NCBI GenBank assembly: GCA_900299305.1
Contig: OMJJ01000119.1
Location: 1-58,882 of the forward strand
Source: a bacterium
GTDB lineage: Bacteria; Armatimonadota; Chthonomonadetes; Chthonomonadales; Chthonomonadaceae
Length of the DNA: 58,882 nt
Direction: 5' to 3'
The notes below the pieces were generated by a model that had not been told where the DNA came from, made no database searches, and worked only from the letters and a program-made list of their open reading frames with translations. Below are positions 6,875 to 25,119 of this stretch, in pieces. Both the position numbers and the translations under genes were made by a program. Position 1 is the stretch's first letter. The number at the start of each line of letters is the position of its first letter.

Positions 6875-8407
6875 CTATTTCCCTACTTCATGGAAGTGAC
6901 TCACACGGTTTCTCCCTCCCTTCTTCGAGCGATACAGAGCTTTGTCCGCCTCGTTTACCAACTCGGCAGTGGAACGGCTTCCCGCTCGCAAGGTAGAGAC
7001 CCCCAAACTAATCGTTATCTGGCGGTACTCTATAGGGAGAGCCTCTACCGCCGTCCGAATACGTTCTGCAACCACTATTGCCCCCTCTTTATCCGTTTGG
7101 GGGAGCACGGCGACAAACTCTTCGCCCCCGTATCGGGCAACGAAATCGGTGCCTCTTGCCGCTCTTTTTAGGGTAGAAGCGACCTGCTTTAATACCTCGT
7201 CCCCTGCCGGATGACCGAAATTGTCGTTGAACTCCTTAAACTTATCTACATCCAGCAACAAACCTGAGAGCGGCGCACCAGAACGCTTTGCCCCCATAAA
7301 CTCTTCTGCCAACCGCTCTTGAAACGAACGGTGATTGTTTAGCCCAGTCAAGCCATCCGTTATCGCCATAACCTCCAACTGCTGGTTGACCTGTAGCAAC
7401 TCCATCGCCTGTATCTCTATCTCTACCCGTGCTTCGTTCACGGCAAGAAAGTGCTGTTGTACCTGCTCTTCCATACGGCGGCGGTCAGTAATATCGGCGA
7501 AAGTGACCAAAACCCCGTTAGGCTTAGATTGCTCTGAACTGGAAAGAGGACTTGCATTCACGCTTATCCATGTTGTGTTGCCGTTTGGATGCACCACTCC
7601 CATAACAACATTATGCTGTGCCTTCCCTTGTGAACGAGCCACAGAGATAGGATAGTCGTCATCCTCCCACTTAGTTCCATCTTCGTGAATAACACTCCAG
7701 CCTGGGTCTACAAGAGAGGGATTTGCTATCTGATCCTGTGTTAAGCCTAGTATCTGTTCAGCGCGTTGATTACAAACGACGACTTCTTCCTTCGCGTTAT
7801 AGAGTACAAAACCCTCCTGCATCACATCTATCGCAATGCGGAACCGCTCTTCGCTCTCTGCTAACGCCGAGACCACACGTATATAGTCTCTAAGCGACTC
7901 CTCTTGCAAATCCGAGAGGCGGTGGATTTCCAACTGTGCCGCCGCCTCTCGCCCCAAAACTTTAAGCATCTCTAGTTGCATGGTGGAGAGGTTGCGGGGT
8001 TTGTTGTCAATGACACAGAGGCTTCCTAGTGGGTATCCCTCTGAGGAGAGTAGTGGTATGCCCGCATAGAAGCGAATGTTCGGTTCACCTGTCACCAGAG
8101 GGTTTTGAGCGAATCTCTCATCTTCTAGTGCATCCGGAACAACAAGCGTGTCTGTTTGTAGAATAGCATGAGCGCAGAAAGAGTGGTCTCGGTGGGTCTC
8201 GGTAGCCTCTAGCCCTACTCGTGACTTAAACCACTGTCTCGATTCATCTACAAGGCTAATAAGGGCAATAGGGGTTTCGCAAAACAGGGAAGCCAAACGA
8301 GTGATAGTGTCAAAGGCTTCTTCGGGTTGGGTGTCTAGGATGTGGTACTCTTGGAGCGCAGTCAGACGCTCGGCTTCATGGCGGGGTAGCGGTGCAGGCA
8401 TAATCAT
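6875..8407 (-). CDS. GAF-PAS-GGDEF diguanylate cyclase
   Basis: N-terminal GAF-like region, central PAS-like region, and a C-terminal GGDEF domain (DGLTGLNN ... RYGGEEF). Confidence 0.9.
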   Translation of the reverse strand: MIMPAPLPRHEAERLTALQEYHILDTQPEEAFDTITRLASLFCETPIALISLVDESRQWFKSRVGLEATETHRDHSFCAHAILQTDTLVVPDALEDERFAQNPLVTGEPNIRFYAGIPLLSSEGYPLGSLCVIDNKPRNLSTMQLEMLKVLGREAAAQLEIHRLSDLQEESLRDYIRVVSALAESEERFRIAIDVMQEGFVLYNAKEEVVVCNQRAEQILGLTQDQIANPSLVDPGWSVIHEDGTKWEDDDYPISVARSQGKAQHNVVMGVVHPNGNTTWISVNASPLSSSEQSKPNGVLVTFADITDRRRMEEQVQQHFLAVNEARVEIEIQAMELLQVNQQLEVMAITDGLTGLNNHRSFQERLAEEFMGAKRSGAPLSGLLLDVDKFKEFNDNFGHPAGDEVLKQVASTLKRAARGTDFVARYGGEEFVAVLPQTDKEGAIVVAERIRTAVEALPIEYRQITISLGVSTLRAGSRSTAELVNEADKALYRSKKGGRNRVSHFHEVGK

Positions 8408-8588
8408 CCTTGATAACGAAGTGCGTATTTTAAGGGGTAGCGTTCTATCAGGAGTAGGCTATCCCGTACAAACATTAGCATAAACAAACATCATCATAGC
8501 ACAAAATTTTTGTAAAATCGGTATGGAGCAGGAAAACTGGTATGTGGGAGGTAACTAAGTAAGGTAGAGAGTAGGATAGGAGAGAGAT

Positions 8589-8807
8589 GTGTCTGAAACT
8601 ACCGAAGAGAGCAGAAAACTGCCGCGCCTACGCACTATACAGGGGCTACGCTGTGAACAGTGCGGTAGCCCAGAGGTTGCTCCTTTGCCTACCTTTTCGG
8701 TGGGTAGCGGAACCGCCTCTCGTACCTTTGCGGCGGATGTGATTTGTAAGCGGTGTAGGCATATCGCCCTACCTATTTTAGAGACCAAAAGAGAGGCACA
8801 AAAATGA
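8589..8807 (+). CDS. Small zinc-ribbon protein (hypothetical)
   Basis: 72 aa with CEQC...CKRC cysteine pairs and a GTG start. Its stop overlaps the next ATG (ATGA), suggesting translational coupling. Confidence 0.4.
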   Translation: MSETTEESRKLPRLRTIQGLRCEQCGSPEVAPLPTFSVGSGTASRTFAADVICKRCRHIALPILETKREAQK

Positions 8808-9553
8808 GATTTCAATGGATGTTAGGCGCGGCAGCCGTTGCCTTGCTAGGTAGCCCCGTGCTTGCCCAAGACAAGCCCGGCGGGCAGGTAGCAGAGAGTT
8901 TTGAGAGGGAGATAAAGAAAACGGTTAAAGGAGATTTTCTTATCGCTCTGCCCAAAGACTACGAGAAAGAGGCTACCAAAAAGTTTCCGCTACTTATCTT
9001 TTTACATGGCGCGGGGGAGCGCGGTAGCGACTTAGAGATGGTGAAGAAGCACGGACCTCCCAAACTGATTACGGCGGGTAAGGAGTTACCTTTTATTGTA
9101 GTTTCGCCCCAATGCCCGACAAACGAGCGGTGGTCGGTGGATGTGCTAAACGGGATGTATAAGCACGTTACCAAAAAGTACCGCGTAGACAAAGAGCGGG
9201 TCTACCTAACGGGGCTGAGTATGGGTGGGTTTGGAACGTGGGAGTGGGCAATAGATTCGCCCGGTAAGTTTGCCGCTATCGCTCCTATCTGTGGCGGCGG
9301 CGACCCCAAAAAAGTAGCCGCTCTCAAAGAGATGCCAGTATGGGTGTTTCATGGCGGTAAAGACCCCGTTGTACCCATCAAACTAAGCCAAGATATGGTA
9401 GATGCACTCAAGGCGATAGGTAGCGAAGTAAAATTCACTATCTACCCAGAGGCGGGGCATGACTCTTGGACGGAGACCTACGATAACCCAGAACTGTTTA
9501 AGTGGTTCCTCCAGTATACGCGCAAGGCAAAAGAGAAGGATAAGGGCGAGTAG
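8804..9553 (+). CDS. Secreted alpha/beta hydrolase (carboxylesterase/phospholipase family)
   Basis: Signal peptide, LLIFLHGAGERG, nucleophile elbow GLSMGG, and C-terminal GHDSW. Confidence 0.8.
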   Translation: MRFQWMLGAAAVALLGSPVLAQDKPGGQVAESFEREIKKTVKGDFLIALPKDYEKEATKKFPLLIFLHGAGERGSDLEMVKKHGPPKLITAGKELPFIVVSPQCPTNERWSVDVLNGMYKHVTKKYRVDKERVYLTGLSMGGFGTWEWAIDSPGKFAAIAPICGGGDPKKVAALKEMPVWVFHGGKDPVVPIKLSQDMVDALKAIGSEVKFTIYPEAGHDSWTETYDNPELFKWFLQYTRKAKEKDKGE

Positions 9554-11497: not shown

Positions 11498-12301
11498 ATG
11501 GAGAGTATCAAACGTACAGGCGCGAAGGCGCGTTATGAAGAGGATGGCTTCTTGGTGGTTCCAGAGGTCATCTTCCCAAACGAACTGGTGGAAAACGCCG
11601 TTTTGGGTATGGATGCGATACGGCGCGGAGAGTACGATACCGGAGTACCCCCGCGCCCCTCCCCATGGAAGCCGGGAGACGACCCCAACCTGCTTTGCAA
11701 AATAGAACAGCCTCAGTTTGCAAGCCACGCCATTCGGGAGTTGCTAAACTACCCCGCGTTGGGAGAGTGGGCATCGGCGATTACGGGGGCTACGGGAGTA
11801 CAAGCGTGGTGGATACAACTGCTCTATAAGCCTTCTGCCCCCGAAGGGGTTACACTAAAGACCAATGTGGGTTGGCATCAGGATAGGTACTACTGGGGGA
11901 TTTGGGAGGAGGATAGCGAACTCCTTACGGCGTGGATTGCGCTTTCGGAGGTGGAAGAGGACTGTGGGCCCATGCACTTTGTGCGCGGCTCACACCAGTG
12001 GGGCTTTCGCAATGAAGGAGACTTCTTCGAGCAGAACTTGGAGGGGCAGAAGCACGGTATTTCGGTTCCGGAGGGGGCGAACTGGGAAGAGGTCTCTGGT
12101 GCGATTCCGAAAGGTGGCGTAACGTTTCATCACAAGCTCACCTTTCACGGCTCTCAAGCCAATGTCTCTGGTAGACCGCGCCGCAGTTTGGCAGTACACC
12201 TAAGAACGCAGAACTCGCGCCCTGTTGAGAATCGGCGGGAGGGATTGACGGAGTTTATCGACGATACAACCCTCTGCCCTGTTATCTATGGGAAGATGTA
12301 A
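11498..12301 (+). CDS. Phytanoyl-CoA dioxygenase (PhyH) family Fe(II)/2OG oxygenase
   Basis: WHQD iron-ligand motif, later HFVRGSH, and family-like length of 267 aa. Confidence 0.75.
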   Translation: MESIKRTGAKARYEEDGFLVVPEVIFPNELVENAVLGMDAIRRGEYDTGVPPRPSPWKPGDDPNLLCKIEQPQFASHAIRELLNYPALGEWASAITGATGVQAWWIQLLYKPSAPEGVTLKTNVGWHQDRYYWGIWEEDSELLTAWIALSEVEEDCGPMHFVRGSHQWGFRNEGDFFEQNLEGQKHGISVPEGANWEEVSGAIPKGGVTFHHKLTFHGSQANVSGRPRRSLAVHLRTQNSRPVENRREGLTEFIDDTTLCPVIYGKM

Positions 12302-12332
12302 CTTGTCTTCACCAAAAAGGAGTGTTTTGGTT

Positions 12333-12758
12333 ATGAAACGAAGTAGAAAAATAGGGCTGATAGCCCTCGTGTTGGTGTTATGCACGGGAGTAGTGGCTTC
12401 GGCGCAGTTGGGTTCTCTGTTCAAGGGGGGCGGTATCGCGTTTATCGTCTCGAAGTTTGGCAAAGACATCAACAAAGCCATTAACCGCCTTACGAAAACA
12501 GAAGACAAAACGGATACTTATGCCACAAAAGTAGTTCCTATTATCTCGGTGGGTAACGGGAAAGAGGCGGGTGCGTGTCAGATTATGGGGGCACCGGAAG
12601 CGGTGGAGAAGGTGGGGGCAGTAGCGCAGTTGGAAGGGGATTTTAGCATTGTGAAGGTGCGAATGCGCGGACTAATCCCCATTGAAGGCAAGGATGTAAG
12701 CCACTTAAAGCGCGTGGTGGGCGTGGGAGTAAGCGGTTTGCTAGATATTAAACTTTAA
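12333..12758 (+). CDS. Secreted hypothetical protein
   Basis: Signal peptide MKRSRKIGLIALVLVLCTGVVASAQ at the internal ATG 12333. No family recognised. Its 3-prime end overlaps the convergent operon by 11 bp. Confidence 0.5.
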   Translation: MKRSRKIGLIALVLVLCTGVVASAQLGSLFKGGGIAFIVSKFGKDINKAINRLTKTEDKTDTYATKVVPIISVGNGKEAGACQIMGAPEAVEKVGAVAQLEGDFSIVKVRMRGLIPIEGKDVSHLKRVVGVGVSGLLDIKL

Positions 12759-13758
12759 TGCTGAAGGAACTGTAAAAAATGGCATGAGTGCGGCGCAACA
12801 CGTTTCCTTGATAGCGGTAGCCCCCCATACCGTGTTCAATGTGGTGGTATTTATATGCCTTCTCTGGAGTCTCTGGTCTTATGGGAGGGCGAGGGGTAGG
12901 GTCATTTTCTATTTCGCCTGCCTTTTGCGAAGTCACTCCGGCTATGCCTTCGATACGCGTTATCCCTCGCTCCTCTATCTCTTTCTTACGCTGGTTTTGT
13001 ACAAAAAGGATGGCGGCTTGCATCTCTTGGAGCGTTTTGGAGTCGGTACTCTTTTTGAGGGCTGGAGAGAAGACAGGGCTGAAATAGAGGGCGGTATCCA
13101 ATTTGCGAAAATCGTTCTCTTGCCAATGTTGAGGGTTGGTCTTAGCAAAAGAGTCCCATTCCGCAACAAGTGTGTTGTAGCCCTGTTGTAGCAGAGTAAG
13201 GAGGGGCTGTATCTCCAACTCTGCTTTGTTTTGCATCAGGTTTTGTAGGGCTATCAAGCCATTTTCCCACGCACTCGTCTTTATTTCAAATGCGCTTTTC
13301 GTGGGGAGTATTTTTTGGGGGGCAGGAGGCTCTTTGGCTTTTTGGCGTTCTACCTCCCATTTTTGAAAGTGCAAATCTATCTCCGCAAGCCGTGCTAGAG
13401 TTGCTTTAAGAAGAAACTGTGTCTCGTTTTGTTGCTTTACAATCTGCTCTAAGGAGTTCGTAACGGTTTCCAGATTGGTGTTCGATTTTACTCCCTCTAA
13501 TGCCTCCAAAAGGGTTTGCGACTGACTTTGTAGGGTTGCCTCTATTGAGTTTACCCATAGAGGGCGTTTCGATTCTAAGATGCGCTCTGTCTGTTGCCCA
13601 ATTTGGCGCACTGTACTCTCCGCATCGTCGTCCTCTTCAATGTCGTTGTGCGTTGCATCCAGAAGACGGCTACGGAGTTCGCGCACTTGTGATGCAACTG
13701 CAAAAACCCCAAACAGTAGCAACACGGAAAGAATAGTAGGAATCCAGTCAAGTGTCAT
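12748..13758 (-). CDS. Membrane-anchored coiled-coil protein with GrpE-like C-terminus (paralog 2)
   Basis: N-terminal TM helix (IPTILSVLLLFGVFAVA) and a long Q/E/L-rich helical region. C-terminal RGITRIEG ... GGYRYQGNVLRRTHAIFY resembles the GrpE beta-domain (E. coli QKGYTLNGRTIRAAMVTV). AAGGAG RBS is present. Paralogous to 13777-15114. Confidence 0.5.
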   Translation of the reverse strand: MTLDWIPTILSVLLLFGVFAVASQVRELRSRLLDATHNDIEEDDDAESTVRQIGQQTERILESKRPLWVNSIEATLQSQSQTLLEALEGVKSNTNLETVTNSLEQIVKQQNETQFLLKATLARLAEIDLHFQKWEVERQKAKEPPAPQKILPTKSAFEIKTSAWENGLIALQNLMQNKAELEIQPLLTLLQQGYNTLVAEWDSFAKTNPQHWQENDFRKLDTALYFSPVFSPALKKSTDSKTLQEMQAAILFVQNQRKKEIEERGITRIEGIAGVTSQKAGEIENDPTPRPPIRPETPEKAYKYHHIEHGMGGYRYQGNVLRRTHAIFYSSFSIKV

Positions 13759-13776
13759 CTTGGTACTCTCCTTTGC

Positions 13777-15114
13777 TTAGGATTGTGGCTCGCTTTTGCG
13801 GTAGTAGAGGGCATGGGTGGGTTGGTTGGCAATAACTTGTCCGTTATACTCATAACCTGCCCTACCCGGCACAATTCTATAGAACCGATACTCCAACTTC
13901 TCTTCTGGGGCAGGAATACGGAGCCTGTCATTTTGAGCATCTGCTTCTATTCTGCCCGGTGACATTCGGGAGGCGGTGGTCTCTTTTGCCGCTTGCTCTC
14001 CTATGCGATAGATACCGCGCTTTGCCAACTGCCGCTGTGCCTGTTGTTGTATTTGCTGAACCGTTTCGTGGAGTTGCGCCCAGTTCTTCGAGAGTGCAGG
14101 TGTCCAATCGCCTGTATCGACCTTGAATTCGCTGTAGAGTGCTCTGTCTAGGGGTTCTATATCGGTAGCGTTCCACTGTGTAGGGGATATTTTGGCGAGT
14201 TCATTCCAGCGTCCTACACTAAAGAAGGTGTATGTGTTACGAATCTGCGCCTCGATATCCGGAGCCGCCTGCTCTAGTTTTATCTTCAGTTTGGAGTACT
14301 CCATTTGAGTCACCCAACTCTCCATCAGCGATTCCCAAGTCGGCGCGAGGGTTGTGGATGAAGAGGGTACAAGACTAGGGCTATCCTGAATCGTTTTCGG
14401 TTCGGTAGCTTCTTTCTGTTGTTGAAGGAGAGCGTCTATTTTTGCGTACAGAGGTTGGATTGTGTCCTTGATTATCTTCTGCACATCTTCTTTTGAGAGG
14501 GCTTCGGGGGTAGAACGGTGAGGCTCAGAAGAGATTTCTTTGCTAAGGGGTATCTCCTGTTTCGCCCCAGCCTGTTCTTCTGCCCACAAGAGCATCATCT
14601 GAAGTCTTTCTGAGAGTTGTTCTACCTGGGTAGCAAGTGGTTGAAGTGCATCGAGTTGTTTGGCGACTGCTTGCCTCTCTTCTCCCTCAAGTTGCTTAAT
14701 GTTGGTTATGGCAACCTCCACTTTTGAGGCTACTTTGCCTATCTCTGGGTTGATACCATCCGCAAAATCATCTACAACAGTAGCGAGATTGTCTATGAGC
14801 CTCTTAACATCGTCATATCTTTTTGACATTTCTTCCACTATCTGCTCTCTGTGAGCCAGTAGCACCGCTTGCCATGCTACTTCTAACTGATTGGCATAAT
14901 CTCTGTGTACTCTGTCTACTATGATATACACAAGCACCACAATAAATACAAGTGAACTCATGGCTCCGAGTGCCGCCCACTTGTTGATTAGCCATGCGGC
15001 AAACTCCGTGCAGACTAACAGAGTTGCCAAAAAAATGAGCGGTTTTACAAAAGTAGGAGGCGGAGGAGTTTGCGTCTCTTCTTTTTGGGGTGGCATAGCT
15101 TGGGCTCCTAACAT
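13777..15114 (-). CDS. Membrane-anchored coiled-coil protein with GrpE-like C-terminus (paralog 1)
   Basis: Two N-terminal TM helices and a long coiled coil. C-terminal LAKRGIYRIGE ... AGYEYNGQVIANQPTHALYY is GrpE-like. The likely true start is ATG 15096, preceded by AGGAG. Confidence 0.5.
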   Translation of the reverse strand: MLGAQAMPPQKEETQTPPPPTFVKPLIFLATLLVCTEFAAWLINKWAALGAMSSLVFIVVLVYIIVDRVHRDYANQLEVAWQAVLLAHREQIVEEMSKRYDDVKRLIDNLATVVDDFADGINPEIGKVASKVEVAITNIKQLEGEERQAVAKQLDALQPLATQVEQLSERLQMMLLWAEEQAGAKQEIPLSKEISSEPHRSTPEALSKEDVQKIIKDTIQPLYAKIDALLQQQKEATEPKTIQDSPSLVPSSSTTLAPTWESLMESWVTQMEYSKLKIKLEQAAPDIEAQIRNTYTFFSVGRWNELAKISPTQWNATDIEPLDRALYSEFKVDTGDWTPALSKNWAQLHETVQQIQQQAQRQLAKRGIYRIGEQAAKETTASRMSPGRIEADAQNDRLRIPAPEEKLEYRFYRIVPGRAGYEYNGQVIANQPTHALYYRKSEPQS

Positions 15115-15129
15115 GGGGCTATGGTGGTG

Positions 15130-17553
15130 CTACATGATAACAATGTCGTCTTCTCTTCCTTGATATTGAGGATAGTTAATTATCAGATGAAGGTGAGCAT
15201 CTGGGCGATAGTGAAGGTGAATGCCCATCCGCAAGTCTACCGTCAAGCCTTGTCTATCCACAATCGTATCTTCGTAGAGGTGGTACTCTCTCTCTTCTCC
15301 CTCTATCTTTAGGCGCGTATATACGGTTATTGTCCCCGTTTGCTTACGAGATAAGATAACCGTATGCTCGTCGGACTCGGTGTTTACAGAGCAACCTGCC
15401 CGTATCAGAGAGGGTTCGTCTAGGTTATGAGAGGCAGACGTGAAGCGAACACCAATAGTAAATGGAAAGTTATCAGTGGAGTCTACCAGTGGGCTAAGGG
15501 TGGCTCCCCGCGCTACGTTTAGAGTATAAAACGGGGTGGCAGTGCCTTGCTGAGAAGCGACTTGTGGAGGTTTTGGAAGATAGCGTATCCCTGTAAACAG
15601 TCTTCTTACCCTCTCTACTACACAGGGGATAAACGTACTGCCTCCGGTAAGGCAGAGCCATTTTACTCTGGGGATTTCTCTCATTTTGTCGCGTAGGGAG
15701 GGGTATGCCTCCTTAAAATGGACACGCTTGAGTACGGTATTTACCCCATGTTCCCCCTCTTCGGGAAGCAGGATGGGGTAGGTGTCGGACTCGGTGATAC
15801 CTATCTCTAACATTTTATGTAGGTACTCATTGTAGAGCGAGGCGATTAGGCTCCATGAGACGACTGCCCCCTCTCCAAAGGTATCCGGTGCATTTAACTC
15901 TACTCTCGAATCTTGCCTCAAGCGGGTTTCATCTGGGGGAAAAGAGAGTTTTTCTTTGGCGCGTCGAATATCGTCTACAAAAGCGGTATGACTATATTCG
16001 TCGGGCTTTTTGGGAGAGTTCTCCATAATACGTTCGGCGAGGAGTGCGTCTACAAGGTCGCCCCCTATGGGAAACCCTAATCTAAGGTGTCGCTTAAACT
16101 GATATACCCCTTGCGACTGCGTTATCTCCAAAATACAGATGTCGGTAGTTCCTGCCCCCGAATCGAAGACACAGATGTAGTCGCCGTCGTGCAGGTCGGT
16201 CATACCCCACTGTTCGTGGTGATACAGAAAGTCGATAGCGGCGGCTTCTGGCTCTGATAGGGTCTCTATCTTGTGTCTGGGGAACCCCGCTAGTTCGGCG
16301 GCATCGAGTGTCCTCTCTCTCTGCTCATTGAACTGGATTTCGTTTCCCAATACGGGTAGGCTCATTACTACCCGTGCGTTACTAAAAGGGTCTTTGCCGT
16401 TAAAGAGGGGCTTACTCTGTAGCTCTTGATAGAGGAAGGTAAGAAAGTCGGTGACAACCTCTGGGGCGGTATAGGTTCGGGCCGTGGCTTCGTGCGGGTA
16501 CTCGGTGTCGCTAGAGAGAAGTTTTTTCACAGAGCGAATCACGAGGGAGTCGGAGGTAACACTCGCGGGTACTTCCCATCCAAAGAGGGGTGGGTCTCCT
16601 ATGGCGGGAGGGTACATGACTACCGAAGGCAGACTTTGGCGACTGTTGTTCCACTCTATAGGGATAAGTGTTTCGGGTGCGTTGAGGTTATCTATCACAA
16701 AGACCGCGCTTTTATAGGTTCCAAAGTCTATTCCGATAATCCAACGCTCTCTCGGTTTTTCGAGGGGTTTGGGGTACTGAGCAAACAGCACGACCTCTTG
16801 CGGCGTAGTAAAGCCCAACCCCGACACCTTGAGTTTGCCGTTATACCTCTCTCTACCATATTCATACGGGGGAGGCGTGATGGAGATGTGCCGCCTTTCC
16901 CGTGCGTCAATGGTAAGCGTCCCTTTGGTTTGTACGCCTACCCCCTCCTGTTCGATACGGAAATCGCCCTCTGTTACCTCTAGGGTGATGTCGTCTTCTG
17001 CATCTCCTTCGTTATGTAGGCAGAGCGATTGGGACTGGTGGGGGCTACGGAAAATCAGGGTTTTGCTCAGAACAAAGGTGGGGCCCAAACGCTTACGCTC
17101 TAGAGTGGCACGTACCTGCATCTCGGAATGTACATCCATGTTGGCAGGTCGGAATATCTCGTCGGGGTCGTCGGTTAGCGGTTCGCGGGTGTTGGTGTCT
17201 AGGGTAAAGCAGATATCCTTTGCCTCTTCGGGTACTGCGTTGGGTAGCAGGTCAAATTTCCAAACGAATCGCGGGTTTTTGGCGGAGAGCGGGGCAGGGT
17301 TATTAACGGCTTGGGTCGATTGTACCCCCGCCGGTAAGTTGCTGAAAGCAAAGCGTATACTGCCTGCCCCCTCATGCGTTAGCATTACCGTACAGGGCGT
17401 AGGGGTATACCCAATGAGGACAATGGGGTCTGGGGTAATCGTCGCGATCACTTTTCCCAACGACCATCCGCAGTATACACAGAACTGAATATCGTCGTCA
17501 TCGGGATTATAGGATGTTTTTTTGCAGTGGTGGCAAAACGCGAACGTGTTCAT
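15130..17553 (-). CDS. Hsp70/DnaK-like ATPase with N-terminal zinc ribbon and beta-rich insert
   Basis: CHHC...CVYC zinc ribbon (aa 7-28), then about 240 aa of beta-rich sequence. Actin-fold ATPase motifs follow: IIGIDFGTYKS (phosphate 1), LSEPEAAAI, VFDSGAGTTD (phosphate 2) and LTGGSTFIP (adenosine). The short C-terminal beta domain resembles a lidless substrate-binding domain. Confidence 0.8.
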   Translation of the reverse strand: MNTFAFCHHCKKTSYNPDDDDIQFCVYCGWSLGKVIATITPDPIVLIGYTPTPCTVMLTHEGAGSIRFAFSNLPAGVQSTQAVNNPAPLSAKNPRFVWKFDLLPNAVPEEAKDICFTLDTNTREPLTDDPDEIFRPANMDVHSEMQVRATLERKRLGPTFVLSKTLIFRSPHQSQSLCLHNEGDAEDDITLEVTEGDFRIEQEGVGVQTKGTLTIDARERRHISITPPPYEYGRERYNGKLKVSGLGFTTPQEVVLFAQYPKPLEKPRERWIIGIDFGTYKSAVFVIDNLNAPETLIPIEWNNSRQSLPSVVMYPPAIGDPPLFGWEVPASVTSDSLVIRSVKKLLSSDTEYPHEATARTYTAPEVVTDFLTFLYQELQSKPLFNGKDPFSNARVVMSLPVLGNEIQFNEQRERTLDAAELAGFPRHKIETLSEPEAAAIDFLYHHEQWGMTDLHDGDYICVFDSGAGTTDICILEITQSQGVYQFKRHLRLGFPIGGDLVDALLAERIMENSPKKPDEYSHTAFVDDIRRAKEKLSFPPDETRLRQDSRVELNAPDTFGEGAVVSWSLIASLYNEYLHKMLEIGITESDTYPILLPEEGEHGVNTVLKRVHFKEAYPSLRDKMREIPRVKWLCLTGGSTFIPCVVERVRRLFTGIRYLPKPPQVASQQGTATPFYTLNVARGATLSPLVDSTDNFPFTIGVRFTSASHNLDEPSLIRAGCSVNTESDEHTVILSRKQTGTITVYTRLKIEGEEREYHLYEDTIVDRQGLTVDLRMGIHLHYRPDAHLHLIINYPQYQGREDDIVIM

Positions 17554-17555
17554 AG

Positions 17556-18356
17556 CTACTGCTTCCCTTGTTTTACGGAGTTGATAATTCCCCTAAAGGT
17601 GTTGATGGGTATGGCTACCTGCTTGTTGTTGCCGATGTCGTCGGGTGTGGAGGCGGTATTGATACCGATAAGCCGCCCCCTTTCGTCGATAAGCGGTCCC
17701 CCACTGAAGCCTTTCTGTATGGTACAGGTGTGTATGATAAGGCGTTGTTCGGTGTCACTGGGCAGGAATGCGGAGATGGTTCCGGTGGGCATATCTTGGC
17801 TAGGTGTCTTATCTCCGCTTCCGTCTATCATTGTCTTTCCGTAACCAATCGCAGTTACCTTTGCCCCCTTGTTGAAGGTGGTGTCATCTGCAATGGTGAA
17901 GTGAGCCAGCTTATCTGCCTGAACTTTAAGAATCGCGAAGTCGTTGGGGAGTTGTTTTAGGAATTCGGGGATAGTGTTGGCAGGAGTAGCACTCGCCTCT
18001 CCTTTTTGGGAAACGGTTGCACTCAACTTTATTGGCTTTGCGCTCCCGCTATCGAAGTACACTGTAATTGTGCTTGCTCCCGCAATAACGTGCCGATTGG
18101 TGAGGATGTATCCATCCGCAGTAAGTACACAACCCGTTCCCGACCCCGAATCGGTGACAATGAGGACTGTTGCAGCCTTCGCGTCGTTCGGCTTAAAGAG
18201 GGTGTAGAGTATCGTAACCACTACTATGGGAAGCAAAAGGGCGAGTAGTTTCGCAAGCGAGAAGTTCCCAATGGGTTTCGCGGCTGTTTTGGTAGTTGCG
18301 GTAGTAGTGGTGGTGCTACTGCTGGTAGTAGCCCAGTTATCGGAATAGTATCTCAT
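17556..18356 (-). CDS. Membrane-anchored trypsin-like (S1/HtrA-type) serine protease
   Basis: Ser/Thr-rich N-terminus, one TM helix, then triad motifs LTNRHVI (His), NDFAILKV (Asp) and GFSGGPL (Ser). ATG 18356 has an AAGGAG RBS that overlaps the stop of the upstream gene. Confidence 0.85.
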   Translation of the reverse strand: MRYYSDNWATTSSSTTTTTATTKTAAKPIGNFSLAKLLALLLPIVVVTILYTLFKPNDAKAATVLIVTDSGSGTGCVLTADGYILTNRHVIAGASTITVYFDSGSAKPIKLSATVSQKGEASATPANTIPEFLKQLPNDFAILKVQADKLAHFTIADDTTFNKGAKVTAIGYGKTMIDGSGDKTPSQDMPTGTISAFLPSDTEQRLIIHTCTIQKGFSGGPLIDERGRLIGINTASTPDDIGNNKQVAIPINTFRGIINSVKQGKQ

Positions 18357-18367
18357 AGCACCTCTCC

Positions 18368-21300
18368 TTATCGGGTGAGCTGGGTCGCTCTTATTTGGTG
18401 TGAACTGCACTCTACGTTATTACAAGGGGCTTTGAAGAGAGGGCGCACTCTGCCTTGTACCGCATTACAGGTTTTGCAACGCCATGTCTCTCTCTCGCTG
18501 TCCCACCTTGCCCAGATGTGCATGGCGGTAATGTCTTCGGCATTTAGGTCGGTGTAATGCCCCAAAAGCCACTCGCTAAACCGTTCTATCGCATCCTCAA
18601 AAACGAGCCCTCCCAAATCTAGGTCATCATAGTAGCCTGTGGACTGCCCCGAGTTGATAAGCTCTTGCAGTGCCTTCGAGTGTCCGATGATGGTTTTCTT
18701 TACGTAAGCGTCGTTGTAGTTTCGGGTTGCGTCACCTATCTCATTCAGGCGTGTTTCGAGGTAAAGAATGGTGTGTTCGTGTTGTGCAAGCGCGAGTGCC
18801 GCTCGCTGAATATCACGATTGGGGTACGAAATTTGACGCGCCCCGTCGTTTCGGTTGATGGTGTACATTAGGGTATGTTGCGCCCCATCCCAAGAGATGT
18901 TGACGCCCTCTGTCCAGCCCTTTTTGGGGCGCGAAGCCAACGCTTCTGAGATGAGCAGGAGTGTTTTCGCCTTCTCTATCACGTTGGGAGGCAATATCAG
19001 CGTAATAGAGCGTTGGGTGAAAGGAGTGGTTTGGTTTTGCGCGTTGGGCGGGAACAGAATGCTACGCCGTCCCGCAATCTCATATCCGCTAATGACGTGA
19101 GAGGGAAATGCCCCCCGCACAAAGAGGTTGGCTACCACGCCGGGGTCATCATGTTCCGCAGGGCTGGCGCAAGGGTTTGCACTGAGAGTCTCTGCAAACT
19201 CTGCGGTAGCGATTTTCATTCCCTCCTGAAAGGTTTCGTACAGTTCTACATCGTTAGCACGGTGGGCAAGAGACTGCCACACAAACGTAGAGGTGGAGAA
19301 ACTGCTTAGGAGTTCGGCATATCCCGGAGTTCCGAGTTGTAGGCTGAGTAAAGGACGACCCTCTCGTGCAAGGTCGGCGCATATTTTGGAAAGGTTTTCG
19401 GGGTTTTCCAGCTCGCGCCCACGCTCTGTATGAGAGAGCATTCGCAAAACAGAGATGTTTACTGCTTGCTGACGACCTATGTTGTCTTCGTTGCGGAGTT
19501 GGGTTTCGATTTTACTTTTTAGAGGGTCGAACAGGCTAAAATCGACATCTCCATTGGCACGTCTTGGAAGCCCTGCACGGAAGTTTCCGTTGTTCATACG
19601 GTGTTGTAAATCGGCAAGGCTATGGAGGCTAATGTCGTTTTGCAGTTGGTCGAGTTGCCTTGATACCCATTCTGCGTCGAAGACGTTATCGGAAAAGAGG
19701 TCACGAATCAGTCTTTGGTCACTGGCATCGTTTCGGCTTGCCGCATAGTTCCACTGTTCTACGTAGTCGATAAAGTTAGCCACCTGACTATAGAGGCTCT
19801 CTTCGCCAGTTCTTAGGTCTCGTAGCACATCATCGTATATCTGTAGTCGGGCAGATACCAAGCATCGTTCATAGAGGTTGTTGGCGCGGTAGGCTTTTTC
19901 AAGTAGGTTGTCGTTGCTAATCGTGACCACCTCTTTAACCACTTTCGGCTTGGCTTTGTGGAAGGGAATCAGCGGGTCTACTGGAGGTTTCTCCTCTACC
20001 TCTTCCTCTTCTACTTCCACCTTTGTCGTCTTTTGCGGTACTCCAGTACCTGCGTTCTTGAGTACTTTCGCCATGAGTGCGTGGTCTGCGCTCATCTCTT
20101 TGTCGAGTGCGATTGCCAAACTGAGGGCATAGCGGGGTCCCTTACTTTGGTCGAAGACGAGCGGAAGTAGGTGGAGGCGTACTCTGTGTTTAACGACCCT
20201 CTGCCCACTTTTAGCGATAAGGTCTTCCTTGTTACGCTCTATGGTTCCTGCAATGTAGCCCGGCGTTTGCGGTGCTAGGTACTTTGTGGGTATGGGAGAG
20301 GGGAACTGGTTGGTGAGATCACTCTCTGTGGAGCTACGGGTTACGTTACGGAGTACCGCCTCTAGGCTCTCCGAGTCGGTTTGAATCAGCTCTTTATAGA
20401 GGGGGTCTTTGTTGGTAGCCCACTCCTTCTCTGCGGCGATGTCGGGAGGAAGTCGCAATCCCACAATATCGCGTAGTGTCTGTAGGTCGGCTTCAAAGAG
20501 TACCGTGAGATCTTCGTCCTCTTTCAGAAATCTTTGGTTAAGAGCAGGAGTGTCAATTTCGGAGGGTTTAAGCCAAAACTGTATCAGTTTTTGAATAATC
20601 TGGCGTTGGGCGATATTGATGCACAGCCCTATAGGAAACTGCCGTAGCCCAATACCGAAAGTGGTGTAGCGGTTGGGATAGCCGTGGTTATCAGCGGGGA
20701 GCGACGAGAAGTTCTGCTGCATATCGTGGATACGCGCCCCGAATGCATTGCGTCCTCCTTTGGAGGTAAGACGCATAAAGAGATAGTCGGAAATCTTTTT
20801 CTCTAGTATCGCCATTGCGTCACGGGCGTTTTCGGCGAGGTTGTTCTCTAGTTGGCGTGGAGATACGAGAGTTATCAGGTCATAAGGAGCCTGTTTTCCG
20901 ATGTCGGGGGGCAGGGACTCCTCTCCGTACTGGGCTTGAAAGATGTTCTCGGCTTTACAGAAGTGGTCGAGTTCTTGTACCAGTGCTACAGAGTTTCGCA
21001 TCTGCGAGGGCCAGTCGGTTAGCCCAACGGAGGCGATAGCGGCGATGCCTTCGGTTTCACAGATACCGGGGCTGATGTTAGAGCGCCGTATAGCGTTTGT
21101 GAGCAGATAGCCGAAGTCGATAAAGGTTCCGGAGCCGGTTCCTCCTCCTCCCGAAGCCACTACAAAGACGAGCATAGAACCCGCGTCGTTGCCGGTGGTA
21201 TCAGTGCGAAGGGCGAGAATATCTTTGAGGATACGAGAGCGCAGTTCGTGCAGGTTACTGGTAGCGAGTAGAGAGAGTCGCCCCATCATGCGTACCCCTT

Positions 21301-21625
21301 TTACACCACCCTCGAAGTTCTGAGCGGTGATGTTTTGGCGCAGAATGGGGTCAAACCAGTCTTTCATGCGTAGGGTGGCAGAGGTGGGCGAGTCGGGCTG
21401 TTGGAGGTCTACCATCTTTTGAATGGGAACTCGTAGCGGGTAGGCGTTATCTCGAAATTTTTCTAGTGCCTCGTTGTCGCGCATATCGGTATCTATAAAT
21501 AGGTAGCGCATATTGGGTGGGTCGGGGGTTCCATACGCCATCTGAAAACGTTTGCGGAGGTTATAGACGACCTCTTTACCGGTACCACCGAGTGCTATTA
21601 CTAATCCGGGGCGATTGAGATTCAT
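18368..21625 (-). CDS. Giant tubulin/FtsZ-superfamily GTPase-like protein (Tubulin_2/FtsZ-like type) with C-terminal zinc ribbon
   Basis: N-terminal VIALGGTGKEVV (T1-like loop) and an exact tubulin signature SGGGGTGSGTF at aa 158-168 (nt 21128-21151). Long helical remainder with an acidic KVEVEEEEVEEKPP linker, and C-terminal CKTC...CNNVEC. Confidence 0.75.
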   Translation of the reverse strand: MNLNRPGLVIALGGTGKEVVYNLRKRFQMAYGTPDPPNMRYLFIDTDMRDNEALEKFRDNAYPLRVPIQKMVDLQQPDSPTSATLRMKDWFDPILRQNITAQNFEGGVKGVRMMGRLSLLATSNLHELRSRILKDILALRTDTTGNDAGSMLVFVVASGGGGTGSGTFIDFGYLLTNAIRRSNISPGICETEGIAAIASVGLTDWPSQMRNSVALVQELDHFCKAENIFQAQYGEESLPPDIGKQAPYDLITLVSPRQLENNLAENARDAMAILEKKISDYLFMRLTSKGGRNAFGARIHDMQQNFSSLPADNHGYPNRYTTFGIGLRQFPIGLCINIAQRQIIQKLIQFWLKPSEIDTPALNQRFLKEDEDLTVLFEADLQTLRDIVGLRLPPDIAAEKEWATNKDPLYKELIQTDSESLEAVLRNVTRSSTESDLTNQFPSPIPTKYLAPQTPGYIAGTIERNKEDLIAKSGQRVVKHRVRLHLLPLVFDQSKGPRYALSLAIALDKEMSADHALMAKVLKNAGTGVPQKTTKVEVEEEEVEEKPPVDPLIPFHKAKPKVVKEVVTISNDNLLEKAYRANNLYERCLVSARLQIYDDVLRDLRTGEESLYSQVANFIDYVEQWNYAASRNDASDQRLIRDLFSDNVFDAEWVSRQLDQLQNDISLHSLADLQHRMNNGNFRAGLPRRANGDVDFSLFDPLKSKIETQLRNEDNIGRQQAVNISVLRMLSHTERGRELENPENLSKICADLAREGRPLLSLQLGTPGYAELLSSFSTSTFVWQSLAHRANDVELYETFQEGMKIATAEFAETLSANPCASPAEHDDPGVVANLFVRGAFPSHVISGYEIAGRRSILFPPNAQNQTTPFTQRSITLILPPNVIEKAKTLLLISEALASRPKKGWTEGVNISWDGAQHTLMYTINRNDGARQISYPNRDIQRAALALAQHEHTILYLETRLNEIGDATRNYNDAYVKKTIIGHSKALQELINSGQSTGYYDDLDLGGLVFEDAIERFSEWLLGHYTDLNAEDITAMHIWARWDSERETWRCKTCNAVQGRVRPLFKAPCNNVECSSHQIRATQLTR

Positions 21626-21658: not shown

Positions 21659-21979
21659 TTAAGCGTCTAGGCGTGGGCATTTCAGCCAGAAGTAGGCAAG
21701 CAGTCCTCCAAAGAGGGCTACCAGTAGAAGCGTATTGAGTAGAGCCATCATATCCCCCGCCCAGAACGCAAGGTACTCTGTGTGTGGAGAGGAGACAAGA
21801 ATCATATAGAGCAGTAGCCCCCATAACCCTGCCGTCCATGCGTAGCGAATGGCATCGGAGGGAGAGAGTTTACACAGGCGCAAAAAGAGGGGATATAGTA
21901 GTAGATAGACCAGCAAAAATGTTGCCGCAAACTCGATGAAGAGCCAAAGCAACGCATTGGGATTTGTAACAAGTAGCAT
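21659..21979 (-). CDS. Small integral membrane protein (about 3 TM helices)
   Basis: 106 aa from ATG 21979, with an AAGGAG RBS 9 nt upstream. Hydrophobic throughout. The longer track ORF (to 22105) would overlap the vWA gene. Confidence 0.6.
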   Translation of the reverse strand: MLLVTNPNALLWLFIEFAATFLLVYLLLYPLFLRLCKLSPSDAIRYAWTAGLWGLLLYMILVSSPHTEYLAFWAGDMMALLNTLLLVALFGGLLAYFWLKCPRLDA

Positions 21980-22002
21980 CGTTTCTTTCTCCTTACTGAT
22001 AC

Positions 22003-23397
22003 TTACTGGCACACATTGTTTTGAGTGCGCGGAACTACCTGTTCCGTGCTGGGCTTGGGTTGATAGAACAGAGCAAAAAAGATAAAAACTCCCATGGCGG
22101 CCCAACAGGCAATCTGCCTGAATTTGAGGTTCGTGGCTGTGGCGGCAGTGCTTGCTCCGAGTGTGAAGTCGAGTTCTACTTCTATGCCGTTTCGGGGAAT
22201 GAGGTAGAGCCGTGTGAGTGCTTCATACGGAAGCGTAACAGGCTCGGTATGTTCTAGGTATCTGTTTTCGCTTAGGAGTTTTATGTCGGGGTGCACCTTT
22301 TCCAAGAGGCACTCGCCGGTAGTCCCTTCGCTCAGAGAGAGGGTGAGCAGGAGTTCTGGGATAAGTGTTTTGCCCTGTGCCCCTAGGGATAGGGGGAGGT
22401 AGATGTCGTATGGGTTGCTTGGTTTGGCACTAGACTCACACGCAAAGATTCGGATACTCTGATTTTCTGCCGTTAAGGTGCGTGGCAGCGCGTTTCGAGA
22501 GTCGGCGCGGAGCGTGACGCTGGTTTTCAATCGCTTGGTTCCTTGCCTAGACTGAACCGCGAAAAACCCCAACACTCCCGCAACTATAACAGCCAACACT
22601 TTCACAGGAGTTGCGGAAGGGGTAGTACTTACCTCGTAGGGAGTGTCGTTGGTGAGGAGTATCTGATTACGCACTTCGATAACGCTCTGTTTCCCTTTTG
22701 CCTCTGCCTCTATTGCCCACAGTATGAAATAGGTGAGCGACTTTTTGTCTTCTCCTATGCGATCTATACGGGTCTCTTTCATGCCGTTTTCGCTGGTAGT
22801 AAGGCTTTTTAGAGCTTCCCGATAGGCGTTTTCGTTGCCGTTGGTTCCAGCGGTTCCTTTTTTGTGGGTAATCAGCACTGCAACAACGCGGTGGTACTTG
22901 TCTTCTTTTTGGATACGGCTGGCTTGTACCATCAGTTGGTTCCGTGCCTCGTAGTAGCTGTCTTGCACCGCAGATTTGGGGGCGGTAAAGAGGGTATTCA
23001 GGCGACCCCCAAACATTTCGCGGTCATTAAACTCTTTGTTACTAATCTCACCGGGGGCAAGTTGTACCGCGGTATCGAAGTGGTAGAGGGTAAGCCTATC
23101 TTTAGCGGTAAGGAAGTTGCTTCCAATACGTATTAACGCCCACTGCACATCGTTAAGGGGAGTGCCGTGCATTCCTCTAGCGGTATCGACCATAAGGACG
23201 AGGTGGAGTGGATACTTGCAGGGGTTTACCTCTTTTGCAAAGGTTTTAGAAAGAAGTGCCTCGTACAGTTTGTACTGCTCTTGTGCGGAAGCATCAGCAC
23301 GGCAACGCAGGGGTACACCGCCCATCAGAAGGCAGAGCAACAGGGTACTCCAAAGAGGCGCGGGGTATGCGGTTTTCCGTAGAGAGCGTAGTAGCAT
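22003..23397 (-). CDS. vWA-domain membrane protein
   Basis: Signal peptide, then a vWA fold start HLVLMVDTARGMHGTPL (DxSxS degenerated to DTARG). A TM helix follows (VLAVIVAGVLGFFAV), then an about 150-aa domain and a C-terminal TM helix. Confidence 0.7.
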   Translation of the reverse strand: MLLRSLRKTAYPAPLWSTLLLCLLMGGVPLRCRADASAQEQYKLYEALLSKTFAKEVNPCKYPLHLVLMVDTARGMHGTPLNDVQWALIRIGSNFLTAKDRLTLYHFDTAVQLAPGEISNKEFNDREMFGGRLNTLFTAPKSAVQDSYYEARNQLMVQASRIQKEDKYHRVVAVLITHKKGTAGTNGNENAYREALKSLTTSENGMKETRIDRIGEDKKSLTYFILWAIEAEAKGKQSVIEVRNQILLTNDTPYEVSTTPSATPVKVLAVIVAGVLGFFAVQSRQGTKRLKTSVTLRADSRNALPRTLTAENQSIRIFACESSAKPSNPYDIYLPLSLGAQGKTLIPELLLTLSLSEGTTGECLLEKVHPDIKLLSENRYLEHTEPVTLPYEALTRLYLIPRNGIEVELDFTLGASTAATATNLKFRQIACWAAMGVFIFFALFYQPKPSTEQVVPRTQNNVCQ

Positions 23398-23410: not shown

Positions 23411-24853
23411 TTACAAAGAGGGTAGGGCTTTGATTTGCATACCGCCGTTGTTCATAGTAAAGAACACAAGGCGGTTGGCGGTATAGAAGATGCGTATTTG
23501 TCTGTCGCTACCAGGAAAGATGTTGATGAACTGCATGGGTTTGAGCGGAGGTCTGCCCCATGCAAAATAGTGGCTATCTTGGTCTTGGGAGTGAAAAATA
23601 AGAAAGGGAGTACTCTGGCTATACGGAACCAGGAACATCTCGATATTCTCCGTAACGCCTGCATCCATGATATGTGTGTCTCTATAGGTTGCGTTCGCGG
23701 GTCTCTCTCTGCTTAGGCAGAGGAGAGTGAGGCTTTCGTCGAACGCATAGAAGTAGTCTTCTTCTATAAGCAGAGAGCGCAGATGGCGGTGTGGTGTCCA
23801 GTTTAGGCTGTGTTGTCTCTGCTGTGCGAAACTCCCTACCGGAAAGACGATAATCTGATACCTGCGCTGGTTGGAGTTATCTTGGGATTCGTAGTAGATA
23901 ACGGCTCCAAAATTTTTGCCTACGTGCCATGCTTGAATGTGGTGAAAGGGGGTACGGATGATTGGCAAAACATCAAGCACCGGAGAGGCATCTTCACCCG
24001 TTCTGATATGATAGAGCGCACCATTTTGTGCGAGCACATAGAACCCTGTTGCGTGTGGCAGAATACGGCGCGGCGGCAGGTTTTCATAGCTGACGTTGGT
24101 AAGAGGTTTTATGGTACGGGGGTGGGTATTGTTACGACAGAGGTCACTTATCGCATAGAGGCGTGCCTCTTGGGTCTGGTGTGTGCTACCTACTACTAGC
24201 AGATGCTCTTGGTTTAGGCAGGTAGTCAACTCCTGAAAATCCTCTACAGAGAACTCAAATAGGGGTGCGCCGCTTCCGGTATGAAACCCGCATATCTGGT
24301 TTTTATGGCGTACCACAAAGGCGTAGGTTCCCACTTCTAAGGAGGTAGGTACATAGGAGCCAATCATCGTGCTTGCTAGTTGCGGCAGTGTGGTGTGCAT
24401 TTGGGGGAGTGTTTGCAGGGTACTCATATCTATTACCTCAATACTCCCAGACATAGTAAGGCAGTAGAGGCGATTGTGGCGTAGTTGCGCTTCGCGCAGG
24501 AGGGGCATTCCTGCTAAGGGGTAGAGGGTTTCGCCGATGTCGGAGGGAGTAGGATACTCTGCATTTCTTTTTGCGTAGAGGGCATTTGCCGCTAACACAT
24601 CCCCACTTGCAGGTAGAAGGTCGTAGAGAACGCTCTCTGCACTCTTATCCGCACTGCAAGAGATGGGGGCTCCGTGTTCGTTGTAGCGGTAGAAGGTGCC
24701 ACAGGAGGCACAAAAAGGGGTCTGTTGGTAGGGTACCATAGCCTTACAGTCGGGTGCAAGGCAACGCGCCAAATGAGCCGTACCACAACGAGAGCAGTAG
24801 CGATAGTTACTGCTAATCTCTGGTAATATCTTTCCGCAGTGGCATATTGACAT
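23411..24853 (-). CDS. Double zinc-ribbon protein with C-terminal beta-propeller-like domain
   Basis: N-terminus CHCG...CSRCG...CLAPDC...CASCG. The remaining about 400 aa show repeated beta-strand blocks (LYCLTMSGSIEVID, YAFVVRHKNQICGF, FYVLAQNGALYHI) reminiscent of PQQ/BamB-like propellers. I prefer ATG 24853 over the TTG at 24913. Confidence 0.55.
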   Translation of the reverse strand: MSICHCGKILPEISSNYRYCSRCGTAHLARCLAPDCKAMVPYQQTPFCASCGTFYRYNEHGAPISCSADKSAESVLYDLLPASGDVLAANALYAKRNAEYPTPSDIGETLYPLAGMPLLREAQLRHNRLYCLTMSGSIEVIDMSTLQTLPQMHTTLPQLASTMIGSYVPTSLEVGTYAFVVRHKNQICGFHTGSGAPLFEFSVEDFQELTTCLNQEHLLVVGSTHQTQEARLYAISDLCRNNTHPRTIKPLTNVSYENLPPRRILPHATGFYVLAQNGALYHIRTGEDASPVLDVLPIIRTPFHHIQAWHVGKNFGAVIYYESQDNSNQRRYQIIVFPVGSFAQQRQHSLNWTPHRHLRSLLIEEDYFYAFDESLTLLCLSRERPANATYRDTHIMDAGVTENIEMFLVPYSQSTPFLIFHSQDQDSHYFAWGRPPLKPMQFINIFPGSDRQIRIFYTANRLVFFTMNNGGMQIKALPSL

Positions 24854-25089
24854 AAAATATCTCTCTGTTTCTGATAGAATCTTCCCTCGTATTTCGCAAA
24901 CCCAAATGCACAATACTCACTTCTATACCAGTGCATCATACAAAAACAAAAAGTGCGTACAGTTACTTCAATATAGTCAGTATGATTTCTTGTACTGGCA
25001 CAATGATACATAATACTCAAAATGTAGAAGAAGTGTCGACATATACTACCACAAACCTCGTAAAATTCCTATCCAATCCTCTAAAATTA

Positions 25090-25119
25090 TTGACAAGTAC
25101 TATGTTATTTATTTATAAT
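25090..25119 (+). promoter_or_regulatory. Sigma-70-like promoter for the 25262 gene
   Basis: TTGACA (25090-25095), 18-nt spacer, TATAAT (25114-25119), within an AT-rich divergent intergenic region. Confidence 0.45.

Follow-up and report, generated by a model that had tools for sequence, protein, structure and literature searches.

Bacteria are described as having a single type of Hsp70 exchange factor, the soluble protein GrpE (PMC4753570), the dimer of which is asymmetric in its binding of a single Hsp70, one wing contacting the nucleotide-binding domain (NBD) and the other the substrate-binding domain (SBD) (PMC12987570). The 2025 review of GrpE-like factors found in a limited literature search mentioned no transmembrane or membrane-anchored forms. 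In vertebrate mitochondria two GrpE paralogues, GrpEL1 and GrpEL2, serve one Hsp70, and a hetero-oligomer recruited to the membrane-associated import motor has been proposed (PMC12987570). Among multi-gene systems, the DO-GTPase/GAP1-N2 conflict systems of Actinobacteria and Firmicutes come with a tubulin theme and, apart from it, with one of HSP70+GrpE (Kaur, Burroughs, Iyer, Aravind 2020, PMC7159879), and FtsZl1 operons encode von Willebrand factor A (vWA) proteins, kinases, GTPases and OmpA-like proteins, with no mention of Hsp70 or GrpE (Makarova & Koonin 2010, PMC2875224). We analysed two tandem genes, here called A and B, in contig OMJJ01000119.1 of assembly GCA_900299305.1, from a member of the Chthonomonadaceae (Armatimonadota); the whole stretch analysed, positions 1-58,882, is referred to as the window. 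Both genes follow a gene for an Hsp70-family ATPase, and they probably encode divergent, membrane-anchored members of the GrpE superfamily that serve this non-canonical Hsp70 of their own operon.

Like GrpE (PF01025; structures 1DKG, 3A6M and 9BLS/9BLT), A and B have a predicted helical stalk, short helical domain and C-terminal beta-wing, carry the collinear motifs LDRAL, G(V/I)..I and GY..(G/D).V(L/I)RP(A/T).(V/F), and are encoded beside an Hsp70. They differ from GrpE in the N-terminal membrane anchor of their family, which in longer relatives is preceded by a putative extracytoplasmic domain, in a length across the family of 280-1000 amino acids (aa) rather than ~200 aa, and in the tandem duplication seen in the window. 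Their partner is not DnaK but an Hsp70 that carries, in fusion, a zinc ribbon and beta-sandwich domains and has no alpha-lid. GrpEL1 and GrpEL2 are canonical soluble GrpE proteins that are not encoded in tandem and whose hetero-oligomer is disputed, whereas A and B appear to be anchored by transmembrane (TM) helices of their own.

Architecture of genes A and B

The two terminal genes of the string described in an earlier note on this DNA were recovered as open reading frames (ORFs) at 13777-15114 (gene A, 445 aa) and 12748-13758 (gene B, 336 aa), both on the minus strand. Their tandem paralogy, which the same note had proposed, was evident in BLASTP (E 6e-13, 30% identity over 145 C-terminal residues) and in a MAFFT alignment with 32% identity across the C-terminal ~190 residues, in which the proposed block W..LAK..P.QW...D...LD.ALY ... 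RGI.RI ... GY.Y.G.V...THA.(F/Y)Y was reproduced. N-terminal hydrophobic helices were likewise found in both proteins when they were scanned with 19-residue Kyte-Doolittle windows. Gene A had two adjacent segments at aa ~25-44 and ~48-67, with windows up to 2.7, and gene B had one at aa ~5-25. The paired segments of gene A probably form a TM hairpin (aa ~25-67; 14914-15042, minus strand), followed by DRVHRDY. Arg-rich or basic stretches lay C-terminal to the hydrophobic segments in both A and B; under the positive-inside rule, these basic residues would place the rest of both proteins in the cytoplasm, and almost no part of either would be extracytoplasmic.

The stalk of gene A (aa ~75-250) was helical and rich in E, A, L and Q, and that of gene B was helical and rich in E, L and Q. 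The stalk regions of both proteins were nearly free of proline, with heptad-like windows at residues 83-153 of A and 67-96 of B. The long Q/E/L-rich helix of the earlier description stood; the coiled coil assigned to it is likely rather than proven, because the heptad score is crude. Flexible P/S/T-rich linkers preceded the C-terminal domain, including a Pro-rich linker at aa ~143-152 of gene B between stalk and domain. The GrpE-like domain of gene A covered aa 252-445 (13780-14361, minus strand) and was modelled by AlphaFold2 (AF2) as helices followed by a small beta domain. In gene B it was placed at aa 161-336 (12751-13278, minus strand) from its 32% identity to the gene A domain and its position in the 25-member family alignment. 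Gene B held the family consensus ('RIEG..G', 'GGYRYQGNVLRRTHAIFY') and matched the family profile at 1.2e-59 in hmmsearch. Gene A was of a derived, divergent type, with 'RIGE' for 'RIEG', the form 'GYEY.G.VIAN.PT.ALYY' in which 'AN' is an insert of two residues, and a second TM helix where gene B has one.

A two-sequence profile of A and B retrieved 27 proteins at E <= 1e-3 and 13 at E <= 1e-10 from 1.84 billion representatives (HMMER); judged from these matches, the block common to A and B is no chance match but defines a conserved, though rare, family of domains. The domain lay at the extreme C-terminus in all 27 except P0034 (1756 aa, with a multi-stretch match), the other proteins being 224-997 aa long, and a TM segment was present in most family members. 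The consensus of 25 members was W..L..D.ALY ... Q..R..EL...G..RIEG..G ... E.D ... F..I.PG.GGYR..G.VLRPT.AVFY, with D, R-I, G, G-Y and A invariant. In their sources the proteins were named 'hypothetical protein' and once 'prefoldin subunit 5'. A word-based homologue search with gene A found only gene A itself. No Pfam family matched any of the 25 members, even at E <= 10, and scans of A and B with Pfam, NCBIfam, PADLOC and PHROGs gave only weak coiled-coil noise (ZorA, MCE, BrxC). No database annotates the domain of A and B as GrpE-like.

Relation of the C-terminal domain to GrpE

The earlier note had aligned the end of this domain with GrpE by eye and had left the matter to sensitive profile-profile and structural comparison; GrpE similarity appeared in both. 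The reference set comprised 13 diverse, genuine GrpE sequences, that of E. coli and 12 from PLSDB (Proteobacteria, Bacteroidota, Actinomycetota, Bacillota and one haloarchaeon). When the 25-sequence family alignment was compared with this set in hhalign, the two aligned at E 1.1e-4 and 57% probability over 92 columns in one register. The family motif 'PLDRALY' fell on GrpE 'V.DnLeRAL', gene A and E. coli GrpE both reading exactly L-D-R-A-L, 'RGIeRIEG' fell on 'k.Gv..I', and 'GGYR..G.VLRPT.AV' fell on 'kGY.l.dRViRPAmV'. The similarity extended past the region noticed at first and took in the 'V.D.LDRAL' helix, matched by the family's 'LD.ALY', so that motifs of the helical domain and of the beta-wing were found in collinear order. 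The hhalign score was 33.9, as against 11.4 ± 2.1 (maximum 18.8) for column shuffles of the GrpE profile (n=100), 10.7 ± 1.7 for shuffles of the family profile (n=100) and 11.2 for the reversed profile. None of the 200 shuffles reached the observed score, which lay ~10 standard deviations (sd) above them.

Intermediate sequences were found among related loci, 26 of which (numbered L) had been collected in a genome scan with the Hsp70-like alignment. The Fimbriimonadaceae homologues (L026, L027, L028 and L038) carried the domain with 'G.ERIDPT.GSPFEPGEVVP', a form visibly nearer to GrpE 'Gv..Idp.G..FDP..H' than that of the window family. Their profile matched that of the window family with E 6.7e-24 (99.6%), and its match to GrpE had E 6.7e-7 (92%); at the profile level these intermediates link the window family to GrpE transitively. 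Proteins with a TM segment and helical stalk that keep 'FDP..H' occurred near distant Hsp70 relatives in L041 (434 aa), L037 (370 aa) and L030 (532 aa). In L041 and L037 they were encoded directly downstream of the Hsp70 relative, and in L030 ~2.6 kb away on the opposite strand; the Hsp70-like genes of these loci encode 750-1189 aa, and together with the stalk proteins they span L041 7760-12688, L037 9380-12591 and L030 4334-11458. GrpE was the top Pfam match of all three stalk proteins (2e-4 in L041, 4.4e-3 in L037 and 1.9e-5 in L030), at 17-25 bits, just under the gathering score, and proteins of this type aligned with GrpE in hhalign at E 8.7e-10 (96.5%).

The AF2 model of the gene A domain, built from the 25-sequence alignment, had a predicted local distance difference test score (pLDDT) of 88.6 and a predicted TM-score (pTM) of 0.81, with helices at 9-56, 65-76 and 88-114 followed by a small beta domain. 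When this model was compared with the whole PDB in Foldseek, the four best matches were all GrpE, each over ~180 columns: human GrpEL1 (9blt_C and 9bls_C; E 1.5e-3, probability 1.00), Thermus thermophilus GrpE (3a6m_B; E 1.2e-2, probability 0.93) and E. coli GrpE (1dkg_A; E 5e-2, probability 0.87). The fifth match was at E 1.9 with a probability of 0.16. The model thus had the short alpha-helical domain and C-terminal beta-wing of a GrpE, with GrpE as its best structural neighbour. Profile comparison, intermediates and modelled structure together bore out the GrpE-like C-terminal domain of the earlier note and support its reading as a divergent member of the GrpE superfamily that would cover both the short helical domain and the beta-wing.

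Hsp70 partner, related loci and copy number

The gene directly upstream of gene A encodes an 807-aa Hsp70-family ATPase (15130-17553, minus strand; Pfam HSP70 3.6e-13). Gene A starts 15 nt past this gene, and gene B 18 nt past gene A. Read from its N-terminus, the 807-aa protein had a zinc ribbon and two beta-sandwich domains, then the NBD of an Hsp70 and an SBD-beta-like domain, without an alpha-helical lid, and it conserved the ASKHA/Hsp70 motifs IGIDFGT.K, EPE.AA.D, VFD.GAGTTD and LTGGS..P. Its AF2 model (pLDDT 84.2) matched DnaK, Hsc70, BiP and mortalin in Foldseek at E ~1e-23 over ~600 columns covering NBD and SBD-beta, and the matches included chains from DnaK-GrpE and mortalin-GrpEL1 complexes. 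The protein thus models as a true Hsp70 with NBD and SBD-beta. It also matched the phage family phrog_22485 (3e-11, unknown function).

Adjacency to the Hsp70 gene was strict. One or two family genes lay directly 3' of the Hsp70 homologue in L001, L002 (=L019), L003 (=L021), L004, L022, L023, L024, L026, L027, L028 and L038; L022 and L023 are nearly identical (91%) and were counted together, leaving nine distinct loci besides the window. These loci came from metagenome-assembled genomes of Armatimonadota (Chthonomonas, Chthonomonadales, Capsulimonadaceae, Fimbriimonadaceae) or from metagenome contigs. Flanking genes varied between loci; in the Chthonomonas-like loci a small membrane protein, a tubulin-like GTPase and a trypsin-like protease were syntenic too, and the protease was conserved in L001-L004 and L020-L024. 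No GrpE-like gene was found at E < 1 next to the most distant Hsp70 relatives, in the Burkholderiales, Vulcanimicrobiota, Selenomonadaceae and Thermoplasmata loci.

Longer family members (L004, L022-L024, P0022, P0024, P0025, P0030 and others) consisted of an N-terminal hydrophobic or signal segment, 150-250 residues, a TM helix, a stalk and the GrpE-like domain. For the single-copy genes among them (L004 12463-14436; L022 12492-14507; L023 12492-14519; L024 12273-15113), this predicted layout is receptor-like, with an uncharacterised domain that would be extracytoplasmic.

In a rough neighbour-joining tree of the last 150 residues, gene A of the window grouped with the first family gene of L001 and L002 and gene B with the second. 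Because A types and B types group across loci, the A/B split predates the window, L001 and L002 lineages, whose Hsp70s are ~52% identical. The members of the pair in L003 grouped together, and so did those in L038, which suggests independent tandem duplications, one each for the window/L001/L002 clade, L003 and L038. A single family gene was present in L004, L022, L023, L024, L026 and L027. With so many single-copy loci the homodimer is probably the ancestral state, and the tree fits an ancestral homodimer that may have been turned into a heterodimer repeatedly. In L002/L019, the second GrpE-like gene (8229-9309) was split over the overlapping frames 8229-9104 and 8827-9309, as a frameshifted pseudogene or an assembly error.

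Proposed role and alternative explanations

Most likely A and B are tethered to the membrane and dedicated to the operon Hsp70, as its GrpE-type partners or exchange factors. The N-terminal helices would hold both proteins in the cytoplasmic membrane, and the helical stalk would reach into the cytoplasm and end in the GrpE-type short helical domain and beta-wing. By analogy with GrpE, A and B would dimerise via the stalk and helical domain, and the beta-wing would bind and open the NBD of the zinc-ribbon Hsp70 so that ADP is released. The tether would thereby fix the ATPase cycle of the Hsp70 at the membrane, where the tubulin-like GTPase, the membrane protease and the small membrane proteins presumably act too. 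Since a GrpE dimer engages its Hsp70 asymmetrically, specialised A and B subunits are plausible, and A and B would most likely form a heterodimer that hard-wires the asymmetry of the GrpE homodimer, with one wing directed to the NBD and the other to the SBD.

Several results weigh against this proposal. The PF01025 hidden Markov model, suggested in the earlier note as a check, failed to match A or B at E <= 1 or any of the 25 family members at E <= 10. Neither A, B nor the family members reached its gathering score of 25.8 bits, and under the present definition of PF01025 the domain falls outside that family. Searches of PDB sequences with phmmer and hmmsearch (A, B and alignments A1, A2, A6 and A7) returned no significant GrpE; alignment A7 met GrpE chains only at E 0.06-0.4, amid noise. 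The direct hhalign probability was modest, and the Foldseek E-values were marginal, none being <= 1e-3. TM-scores against the GrpE structures were 0.36-0.49 with large root-mean-square deviations, which we attribute to the N-terminal helices being folded back in the monomer model, the stalk of the GrpE dimer being extended. The segment 'FDP..H.A', conserved in GrpE where the beta-wing starts, was absent from the window family, which had 'EG..G......E.D' and a longer insert instead; it was partly present in the Fimbriimonadaceae ('GSPFEPG') and retained in the L041, L030 and L037 proteins. The position aligned with R183 of E. coli GrpE, which we take to be a DnaK contact, was variable in the family. 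The best NCBIfam matches of the 807-aa protein were HscA models (HscA/DnaK 4e-19), and HscA works without GrpE (PMC4753570). Further, the many single-copy loci show that a heterodimer is not a general requirement.

A further reading is an unrelated helical and small-beta fold that resembles GrpE by convergence or chance, through composition, coiled-coil-like helices and the targeted comparison. Every HMMER-level search was negative, Foldseek E-values ran from ~1e-3 to 5e-2 with low TM-scores, and the direct hhalign probability was 57%. We consider this quite improbable, since an unbiased Foldseek scan placed four GrpE matches at its head, with a 40-fold gap in E-value behind them, and since three separate motifs were collinear at 10 sd above shuffles. 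The intermediates, moreover, connect both profiles (E 7e-24 and E 7e-7), the neighbouring operon gene encodes an Hsp70, and more canonical GrpE domains occur near distant Hsp70 relatives, those of L041 and L037 again lying directly downstream. If the homology is accepted, A and B could still have lost exchange activity and serve as a tether or adaptor that docks the Hsp70 at the membrane or presents it there as a client or regulator; in that case the trypsin-like protease might exert control by cutting the Pro/Ser/Thr-rich linker. The loss of FDP..H, the variable R183 position, the resemblance of the partner to HscA-type Hsp70s that need no exchange factor (PMC4753570), the strict synteny of the protease and the flexible linkers ahead of the domain would all suit such a role. 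It is nevertheless unlikely. GrpE binding and exchange are one act, a wedge that opens the NBD (PMC4753570), so a retained binding mode would normally promote exchange, and the invariant residues of the family (the R-I strand, PG.GGY and A..Y) lie in the beta-wing, the part of GrpE that contacts the NBD.

It is very improbable that A and B mainly anchor or organise the tubulin-like GTPase in the manner of FtsZ membrane tethers, which would make the GrpE likeness uninformative on function. A tubulin-like gene was in the operon or neighbourhood at most related loci, membrane proteins abound in FtsZl1-type operons (PMC2875224), and a TM helix with a stalk suits a tether. The family gene stays with the Hsp70 gene, however, and not with the tubulin gene: tubulin homologues lay 2.4-4 kb from the Hsp70/GrpE-like pair in L041, L037 and L038 (for L041 and L037, Tubulin_2 homologues at 2.4-3 kb), and the stretches of L026-L028 that were covered showed none, the L026 and L027 contigs ending just upstream of the Hsp70-like gene.

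A membrane-tethered GrpE-type partner of the operon Hsp70 could also carry signals. The receptor-like layout of the longer relatives raises the doubtful prospect that the family consists of transmembrane exchange factors in which an outside event, such as phage contact or envelope damage, switches nucleotide exchange on a dedicated Hsp70. The switched Hsp70 could in turn act on a defence or remodelling system at the membrane by driving its tubulin-like GTPase and its protease, and the A/B pair of the window would then be a sensor-less heterodimeric derivative. If the GrpE assignment is true, a rare branch of GrpE, missed by standard HMMs and joined to membrane anchors and in some members to extracytoplasmic domains, would enlarge the co-chaperone repertoire known so far. 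The prediction points to an Hsp70 and a co-chaperone that can be tested directly as a pair, within a multi-gene system of Armatimonadota not yet characterised, and the tandem genes A and B would offer a case in nature for asking whether two specialised subunits can divide the asymmetric work of a GrpE dimer.

Gene string in the window and comparison with known systems

A and B belong to a minus-strand string of eight tightly packed genes with consecutive gaps of -103 to +33 nt; they are its terminal genes because the next gene (12288-12758, plus strand) is convergent with gene B. In the order of transcription, the string begins with a 500-aa zinc-ribbon protein without a Pfam family (23411-24913), which was kept in L022/L023 at 1e-26, and a 464-aa signal/TM protein without a recognised family (22003-23397). 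A small membrane protein (21659-22105) lay directly upstream of the tubulin-like gene and was kept in L001, L002, L004, L022, L023 and L024, as revealed by phmmer matches; its homologues are 105-123 aa long, and its start is therefore probably later than the ORF start. The tubulin/FtsZ-like GTPase (1085 aa, 18368-21625; Pfam Tubulin_2 PF13809, 1.4e-35), syntenic in related loci, was followed by a 284-aa serine protease of the trypsin-like (HtrA/DegP) type, hydrophobic in a segment near its N-terminus (17556-18410; Trypsin_2 8.8e-24), the Hsp70-family ATPase, A and B. The 3' end of the tubulin-like ORF overlapped the longest protease ORF by 43 nt (18368-18410), and the 464-aa ORF overlapped the small-protein ORF by 103 nt. 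At both overlaps the genuine start probably lies further downstream. A promoter-like site was present upstream of the string at 25039-25010 (minus strand). Promoter and terminator scans of the string did not rise above shuffles, so the operon ends are set by gene spacing only.

This operon resembles the DO-GTPase/GAP1-N2 systems in that an Hsp70 and a (here putative) exchange factor lie in a membrane-proximal operon of several genes that is rich in NTPases and includes zinc ribbons, and tubulin homologues and trypsin-like peptidases recur in systems of that class. In those systems the two themes are non-overlapping and GrpE is an ordinary exchange factor; the window operon, by contrast, combines the tubulin theme with the HSP70/GrpE-like one, and its GrpE-like proteins are predicted to be transmembrane and are highly divergent. 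Assignment to the DO-GTPase/GAP1 system was rejected because no P-loop protein was present in the operon. The constant core of such systems is a GAP1 protein with one or two DO-GTPases (TRAFAC P-loop); none of the eight operon proteins had a Walker A (P-loop) motif, and Tubulin_2 was the sole GTPase family in the Pfam and NCBIfam scans; GAP1 had no model in the libraries used, and its absence is not proven. With FtsZl1 operons the string shares a tubulin/FtsZ-superfamily GTPase amid membrane proteins of unknown function, a likeness at the superfamily level, since the gene here belongs to Pfam Tubulin_2. FtsZl1 operons differ in their vWA partner. A Pfam scan and motif check detected no vWA family and no metal ion-dependent adhesion site (MIDAS) motif in the neighbouring operon proteins, including the 464-aa protein.

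Divergently adjoining the tubulin/Hsp70 operon was a Septu-type defence gene of 666 aa (25262-27262, plus strand), a fusion of a PtuA ATPase (PADLOC 5e-90) with an N-terminal PtuB-like HNH part (6e-27), which gives a weak hint of a defence-island setting. A perfect TTGACA-18-TATAAT was present by this gene at 25090-25119 (plus strand). Outside the operon, a 510-aa protein (6875-8407, minus strand) carried an RYGGEEF (GGDEF-type) motif and looks like an ordinary signalling protein of the diguanylate-cyclase type.

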